From Escherichia coli 042 (GTDB taxonomy: Bacteria > Pseudomonadota > Gammaproteobacteria > Enterobacterales > Enterobacteriaceae): a DNA stretch of 64,000 nucleotides. Positions 55,715-56,348 of the stretch are shown one piece after another. The stretch lies in NCBI RefSeq assembly GCF_000027125.1, contig NC_017627.1; one strand, given 5' to 3'. Numbering within the stretch: the stretch's first letter is position 1; each line of letters opens with the position of its first letter. A program made the position numbers and the translations under genes. The notes beneath the pieces are model-generated. The model searched no databases and was not told where the DNA came from. It saw nothing but the letters and a program-made list of their open reading frames with translations.

Positions 55715-55990
55715 TCAGCCCTGTTTAAACCCCGGCTTGCCGTTTTTGGCTCGCCATTCCTTCACTTCTTTTACGATACCTTCAGGACTGTCCTCACGGT
55801 CATCCCTTGGATAATAAATAAGATCAGAACCATCAGGGTGTTCAGCTAATCGACGAAATTCATCCACTAATTTATCGTCATCAGCCTCAGTTTCACCTTC
55901 AGCCCGGCAGATTTTTCTGACGAACTCCAGTTCAGTTGATATTCTCTCGCCAAAGCAGCTGGGGCTGGATATAGGTTTGGAGTATTTCAA
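55715..55990 (-). CDS. DNase-colicin (E2-type) immunity protein homolog, N-terminus altered; no cognate colicin gene
   Basis: C-terminal 70 aa ...FVRKICRAEGETEADDDKLVDEFRRLAEHPDGSDLIYYPRDDREDSPEGIVKEVKEWRAKNGKPGFKQG resemble Im2; apparent TTG start and unrelated first ~18 codons. Confidence 0.65.
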   Translation of the reverse strand: MKYSKPISSPSCFGERISTELEFVRKICRAEGETEADDDKLVDEFRRLAEHPDGSDLIYYPRDDREDSPEGIVKEVKEWRAKNGKPGFKQG

Positions 55991-56348
55991 ATACCTGGAA
56001 GATCAATTTTGTGCGGCAGCTTTTAATTTTCTACGCAATGCTGATATGACTCAAAACGATGTGAAAGATACAGAGTCAGCTTATCGTGGATGGCTGGAGA
56101 TTGACGAAGAAGATCTTGAGTAAAGCTCGATAATTCTTCTGACGTTATAACTAACGGATGTCGCGTAAGCGAGCCTTCAGGGCCGCTTACGAGCGAGTAT
56201 GACAGACGTATAGGGTTTCTTCATGTTCTCAGTTTTTGAATTGTCAATTCTACTAGTTCAACTCAATACTCTTAGCATGGGAGAAATTTCATTTCTCCAG
56301 GCGGCTCCCAAACCGTGATTCCTGGTAAGCCCGCATCAAGCCGGGCAC

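Follow-up and report, generated by a model that had tools for sequence, protein, structure and literature searches.

The question raised by this locus is whether a reading frame that resembles the immunity proteins of DNase colicins, with no toxin gene beside it, protects its host against bacteriocins or is a relic. The frame lies on the minus strand at 55715..55990 of the 64,000-nucleotide stretch of Escherichia coli 042 DNA that was analyzed (contig NC_017627.1, referred to here as the window). It has 91 codons and starts, as the initial annotation proposed, at a TTG, and its product is labelled "bacteriocin immunity protein" in RefSeq (WP_000877662.1). The initial annotation described an orphan, N-terminally remodelled immunity gene.

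The Pfam profile PF01320 (Colicin_Pyocin) matches the 91-residue product with an E-value of 1.1e-30, and its score of 105.9 bits exceeds the cutoff of 21.2. Among solved structures the closest is that of Im2 (2no8, E=2.7e-38), followed by Im7, Im9, Im8 and the pyocin S2 immunity protein. The expected resemblance of the C-terminal ~70 residues to Im2 is thus borne out, and the alignment check proposed at the outset recovered Im2, Im7 and Im9 as solved relatives. Residues 21-91 of the ORF are identical to residues 16-86 of Im2 at 61 of 71 positions (~86%, counted by hand from the alignment), and both the helix III motif SDLIYYP (residues 55-61 of the ORF) and the C-terminal helix IV are conserved. 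In Im2, Im7 and Im9, DNase binding is carried by helices II and III, specificity is set by helix II, and the helix III hot spot of the E-type DNase immunity proteins consists of D51, Y54 and Y55 (Im9 numbering). Helices II and III are fully present in the ORF. Six substitutions relative to Im2 were counted by hand in or next to helix II: A28E, E31A, N34D, R38D, E41R and T44A. These changes indicate that the cognate DNase is probably not colicin E2, which on sequence comparison appears unlikely to be the true partner of this immunity protein.

The N-terminus of the ORF is of a different origin. The PF01320 alignment covers only residues 21-89, which pair with positions 14-82 of the 82-position profile. 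In place of native residues 1-14 the product has 20 residues of unrelated sequence, and the ORF does not encode a complete four-helix domain of ~85 residues with the native N-terminus and the start of helix I. Residues 1-20 give no Pfam or NCBIfam signal, and NCBIfam contained no family for the whole product, nor for the 215-residue protein or the ParE-like toxin described below. An AlphaFold2 model, built from a 20-sequence alignment, was of low confidence (pLDDT 60, pTM 0.34), with residues 1-13 below a pLDDT of 50. The unrelated segment had been noticed from the sequence and put at about 18 codons; its length is exactly 20 codons, including the TTG (55931..55990).

The source of this segment was identified from plasmid sequences. 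Positions 55600-56350 were used as a megablast query against the 72,556 plasmids of PLSDB, and 241 records matched. Partial matches break sharply at query position 331/332, which is window position 55930/55931. Records that match the left part only include pAPEC-O2-ColV, in which an intact gene for an 85-aa immunity protein (MEKKTISDYTEAEFLEFVRKIC...) comes after the MFS gene eitD. Records that match the right part only include a UPEC132 plasmid, which carries an intact gene for a 215-aa hypothetical protein on the plus strand, before a ParE-type toxin-antitoxin pair and IncFII repA. In a three-way DNA alignment, the window tracks the ColV sequence up to ...GAACTCCAG and the UPEC132 plasmid sequence from TTCAGTTGAT... 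onward. Positions 52003-55930 are 98-99% identical to the eit module of pAPEC-O2-ColV, and positions 55931-59499, which match IncFII/FIC, share 94.5% identity with the UPEC132 plasmid on its replicon side. The boundary, CTCCAG|TTCAGT at 55930..55931, is an illegitimate recombination junction and therefore the point at which the eit module stops on its right-hand side and IncFII backbone takes over. No obvious microhomology was seen at the junction in the three-way alignment. The possibility that the window wraps around a circular plasmid was also tested and was rejected.

On the left of the junction, the immunity-gene remnant (55715..55930, minus strand, stop codon 55715-55717) consists of codons 15-85 of an 85-aa E-type DNase immunity protein. 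In a tblastn search, window positions 55930..55718 were 100% identical to residues 15-85 of the intact pAPEC-O2-ColV immunity protein (WP_000412701.1), which represents the direct ancestor type and is encoded in the same place after eitD. At the DNA level, two synonymous and no non-synonymous changes separate this part of the window from its ColV counterpart. On the right of the junction, positions 55932..56123 (plus strand) hold codons 153-215 and the stop codon (56121-56123) of the 215-aa hypothetical gene. The translation of 55932..56120 is 100% identical by tblastn to residues 153-215 of its product, so the unrelated plus-strand ORF tail that had been seen abutting the immunity-like gene does exist and is the last 63 codons of this backbone gene. 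The 215-aa gene is intact on 957 contigs, and its protein gave only a weak N-terminal HTH-like signal in Pfam and PHROGs. Some RefSeq records annotate a 48-aa ORF at 55977..56123 (plus strand) as "hypothetical protein" WP_001337002.1, which is really the 3' end of the 215-aa gene.

The immunity gene and the 215-aa gene diverge from the junction, and thus each lacks its 5' end, start codon, ribosome-binding site and promoter. The first 20 codons of the 91-codon ORF are the antisense of about codons 153-172 of the 215-aa gene. The N-terminus is unrelated because the frame crosses 55930/55931 into the antisense of the other 5'-truncated gene. The description of the protein as N-terminally remodelled therefore does not hold, since the new terminus is a by-product of the recombination. 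This structural account, the junction and the losses on either side of it, is essentially certain.

The remnant is the last gene of the eitABCD module of ColV/ColBM virulence plasmids, which occupies 52003..55930 on the plus strand of the window, with eitA at 52596..53594 and the end of eitD at 55637. The presence of eitABCD on the IncFII plasmids pKF3-70, pHK01 and pChi7122-2 has been published (PMC2797631, PMC3251573). Neither paper mentions the immunity remnant, and a literature search found nothing specific on this immunity gene in IncFII plasmids. In the window, a clean 999-bp deletion relative to pAPEC-O2-ColV and two IncFII plasmids was also observed at 53882/53883. The deletion runs from within eitB, whose 3' portion is lost, into eitC, whose 5' portion is lost, leaves out-of-frame ORFs at 53594..53890 and 53887..54393, and implies that the eit iron-transport operon is inactivated in this plasmid.

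Compared with the Im2 system, the chimeric ORF lacks the first 14 native residues, its own start and ribosome-binding site, an upstream DNase gene and a lysis gene. In pAPEC-O2-ColV, a 111-codon ORF that carries an HNH endonuclease annotation immediately precedes the intact 85-aa immunity gene and matches the Col-Pyo_DNase profile PF21431 (Pfam, E=3e-32). This ORF (5374-5709 of the pAPEC-O2-ColV locus, L002) is itself chimeric; its last 83 codons are DNase-like and its first 28 are unrelated. Fragments of IS elements lie beyond it. An immunity gene immediately downstream of its cognate HNH DNase is absent from the window and is found only in the ColV context, where the DNase is an 83-codon stump. 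By tblastn, the 64-kb window contains neither a DNase (remnant query) nor a lysis gene (ColE2 lysis query), the best E-value being above 1; the lysis half of this negative result is the weaker one. The initial annotation of the gene as an orphan, with no adjacent colicin or lysis gene, is in agreement with this search.

The cognate toxin was sought more widely with the 83-residue remnant. A tblastn search of PLSDB returned 69 records at 99% identity or more; the three listed were all E. coli with the same stump. About 69 PLSDB plasmids retain the stump with an intact immunity gene. No PLSDB record was found at 80-99% identity to the remnant, and the DNases of colicin E2-type and S-type pyocin/klebicin toxins in PLSDB were at most 60% identical to it. 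A word-limited protein search was also run with the remnant, and no close relative of full length was among its matches. Given the empty 80-99% identity band among plasmid DNases, nothing but the stump is known of the cognate toxin.

The closest intact relatives of the immunity protein are found in lambdoid prophages of Klebsiella aerogenes and in the Erwinia tasmaniensis plasmid record CU468133. Clustering at 90% identity groups these klebicin-like immunity proteins with the intact ColV protein, and their genes start directly after the toxin stop codon, with the same tight spacing as in ColV. Their toxins are full length (640-690 aa), each encoded after a tail-fibre-like gene, and Pyocin_S and Col-Pyo_DNase matches in Pfam were recorded for two K. 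aerogenes toxins (L009, L010). However, the DNase domains are only 63-66% identical to the ColV stump, and thus these toxins are not the cognate ones. The tail-fibre-like gene (Gp34_trimer and Peptidase_S74), the toxin gene and the immunity gene form a three-gene module at about 1700-5260 in the K. aerogenes loci (L008-L010) and at 1876-5258 in the E. tasmaniensis locus (L006). In K. aerogenes the module is inside lambdoid prophages, between replication gene P and the nin/Q region.

The start signals of the chimeric ORF were compared with those of its intact relatives. The native ColV immunity gene starts at an ATG with a GAGG Shine-Dalgarno sequence 8 nt upstream and an anti-SD duplex of -6.0 kcal/mol, and the duplexes of intact relatives are -6.3 and -8.4 kcal/mol. 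The ColV copy retains the ATG, the GAGG and the upstream 83-codon DNase remnant, whereas the window copy has lost all three. On its upstream side the chimeric ORF is closed by an in-frame TGA (56003..56005, minus strand, read from the sequence), and no start codon but the TTG is possible. The duplex at the TTG is -3.8 kcal/mol with a 1-nt spacer, and 36% of random window positions do equally well or better. No Shine-Dalgarno sequence that the TTG could use is present. In addition, a consensus scan of the minus strand from 55990 to 56350 found no sigma-70-like promoter. By these comparisons the chimeric ORF has neither a translation start with a ribosome-binding site of its own nor a consensus promoter upstream.

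The nearest upstream transcription unit on the same strand is the ParE-type pair (56349..56901), which sits between the junction and the IncFII replicon. It comprises a 99-aa ParE-family toxin (56349..56648, minus strand; PF05016, E=8e-13) and an 87-aa RelB/PaaA2-like antitoxin (56638..56901, minus strand) with weak PaaA2/RelB matches, which is a "hypothetical protein" in RefSeq. A stable hairpin lies between the toxin gene and the chimeric ORF (56160..56196, dG -22.8 kcal/mol, z -2.6). It has no U-tract and is not a canonical terminator, and a terminator scan found no canonical terminator between the operon and the ORF. Read-through from the toxin-antitoxin operon into the chimeric ORF is thus possible. 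In a comparison with other plasmids, the window was seen to carry one extra G at 56283 (GGGAGAAATTTC vs GGGAAAATTTC), in the spacer just 3' of the ParE-like toxin gene, which completes an 8-bp inverted repeat (GGAGAAAT/ATTTCTCC).

Rfam gave no RNA family for 55600-56400; its matches elsewhere in the window were CopA and IS3-type frameshift elements only. These belong to a perfect 1,299-nt inverted repeat and the DNA that it encloses. The arms are at 58841-60139 and 62702-64000, the second reaching the end of the window, and each contains a CopA RNA, a copB/repA2 gene and a fragment of an IS256-family transposase. They flank two tandem IS3-family copies with a spacing of 1,239 nt, each with an ALIL frameshift pseudoknot. 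Either the IncFII control region has undergone a palindromic duplication here or the repeat is an artefact of assembly.

The full junction is present in 49 PLSDB plasmids. A 120-nt junction probe across 55930/55931, counted at a coverage of at least 80%, was found in 33 of 5,426 complete E. coli genomes; roughly another 100 of them match the immunity half only, at 98% identity, which is the ColV-type state. The PLSDB matches overall, not those to the junction alone, come from Escherichia, Shigella, Klebsiella, Salmonella, Citrobacter and Yersinia. The exact 91-aa protein of the window occurs on 196 contigs. The commonest chimeric allele (at least 1000 contigs) differs from it in the immunity part by one Pro/His change: it has His at the DSPEGIV proline, a residue that all aligned intact relatives keep. 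Less common variants also occur, among them a frameshifted allele (68 aa, 13 contigs), one that has lost its stop codon, and the substitutions S55P and D53G just before the helix III DLIYY motif. The chimeric ORF is still open almost everywhere, on more than 1000 contigs, which was counted against the reading of the gene as a relic. Copies of the junction are nearly clonal, with 4-6 differences per 751 nt, a diversity too low for dN/dS analysis.

The account that we favor is as follows. A decayed DNase-bacteriocin cassette, consisting of the 83-codon DNase remnant and the intact immunity gene, ended the eitABCD module of a ColV-type plasmid. When the module was fused with an IncFII backbone, the break fell after codon 14 of the immunity gene and before codon 153 of the 215-aa gene. 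The immunity gene thereby lost its ATG, its ribosome-binding site and everything upstream of them, so that the cassette was cut a second time. Extended backward, the immunity frame runs through 20 codons of backbone-gene antisense and begins at a TTG that is there by chance, shortly after an in-frame TGA. The resulting chimera was most likely inherited clonally with IncFII plasmids of the pHK01/pKF3-70 type. The ORF is thus a chimeric reading frame at a recombination scar, and the evidence argues rather strongly that it is a hitch-hiking relic.

The same junction might have arisen by misassembly or as a sequencing chimera confined to this record. Each flank does have an independent parent context, and the perfect 1.3-kb inverted duplication elsewhere in the window is suspicious. 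This explanation has virtually no probability left and is refuted by the identical junction in 49 PLSDB plasmids and 33 complete E. coli genomes, which rules out an artefact of assembly. It could also be supposed that the ORF encodes a novel fusion protein whose 20 extra residues allow it, for instance, to be exported or to engage another partner; the sole argument for this is that the ORF exists. These codons are merely the antisense of another gene, they have no Pfam or NCBIfam signal, and residues 1-13 are modelled with a pLDDT below 50. A fusion of this kind is highly improbable.

A more serious competitor is a functional orphan, in which read-through from the toxin-antitoxin operon and initiation at the TTG would yield a protein folded well enough to present helices II and III and to protect the host against a DNase bacteriocin. 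Several observations are consistent with it: the frame is open on more than 1000 contigs, the binding helices are intact with PF01320 positions 14-82 matched, and the operon lies on the same strand with no intrinsic terminator in between. In addition, orphan immunity genes beside heavily truncated toxins have been reported to be maintained in E. coli plasmids (PMC12546727). However, the native ATG, Shine-Dalgarno sequence and upstream DNA are gone, the Shine-Dalgarno match of the TTG is at background level with a 1-nt spacer, and the replaced 14 residues include the start of helix I. Furthermore, the dominant allele has lost the DSPEGIV Pro and frameshift alleles circulate, the -22.8 kcal/mol hairpin stands in the putative read-through path, no cognate toxin is known (the 80-99% identity band in PLSDB is empty), and the AlphaFold2 model has a pLDDT of only 60. 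We therefore consider a functional orphan unlikely. The more specific proposal that a truncated protein, made through ParE-operon read-through and weak TTG initiation, neutralizes a klebicin-like DNase that has not been sampled is quite doubtful. Of the two outcomes named in the initial annotation, the relic is favored by the loss of the 5' end and start signals, and protection is the less likely, although helices II and III are intact and the frame is open. Residual function of the chimera appears unlikely from its sequence. In the relic reading, which we prefer, the chimera is most likely non-functional, its product probably not being made in useful amounts or not being stable.

The protein family, the plasmid mosaic and the mechanism of gene decay are all already known, and none of the results points to new biology. 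What the analysis offers in practice is a corrected annotation and a marker for the plasmid lineage. RefSeq spreads the 91-aa chimera as an intact immunity protein and its 48-aa neighbor as a hypothetical protein, and both are 5'-truncated fragments at a junction. Scars of this kind could be miscounted in surveys, of which PMC12546727 is an example, that read orphan immunity genes as a sign that bacteriocin warfare exerts selection. If the chimera did protect, epidemic IncFII resistance plasmids of the pHK01/pKF3-70 type would give their hosts bacteriocin protection as a hitch-hiking trait, which would be a modest curiosity. In IncFII plasmids the eitABCD module ends on its right-hand side at this junction, which can thus serve as a marker of this plasmid lineage.
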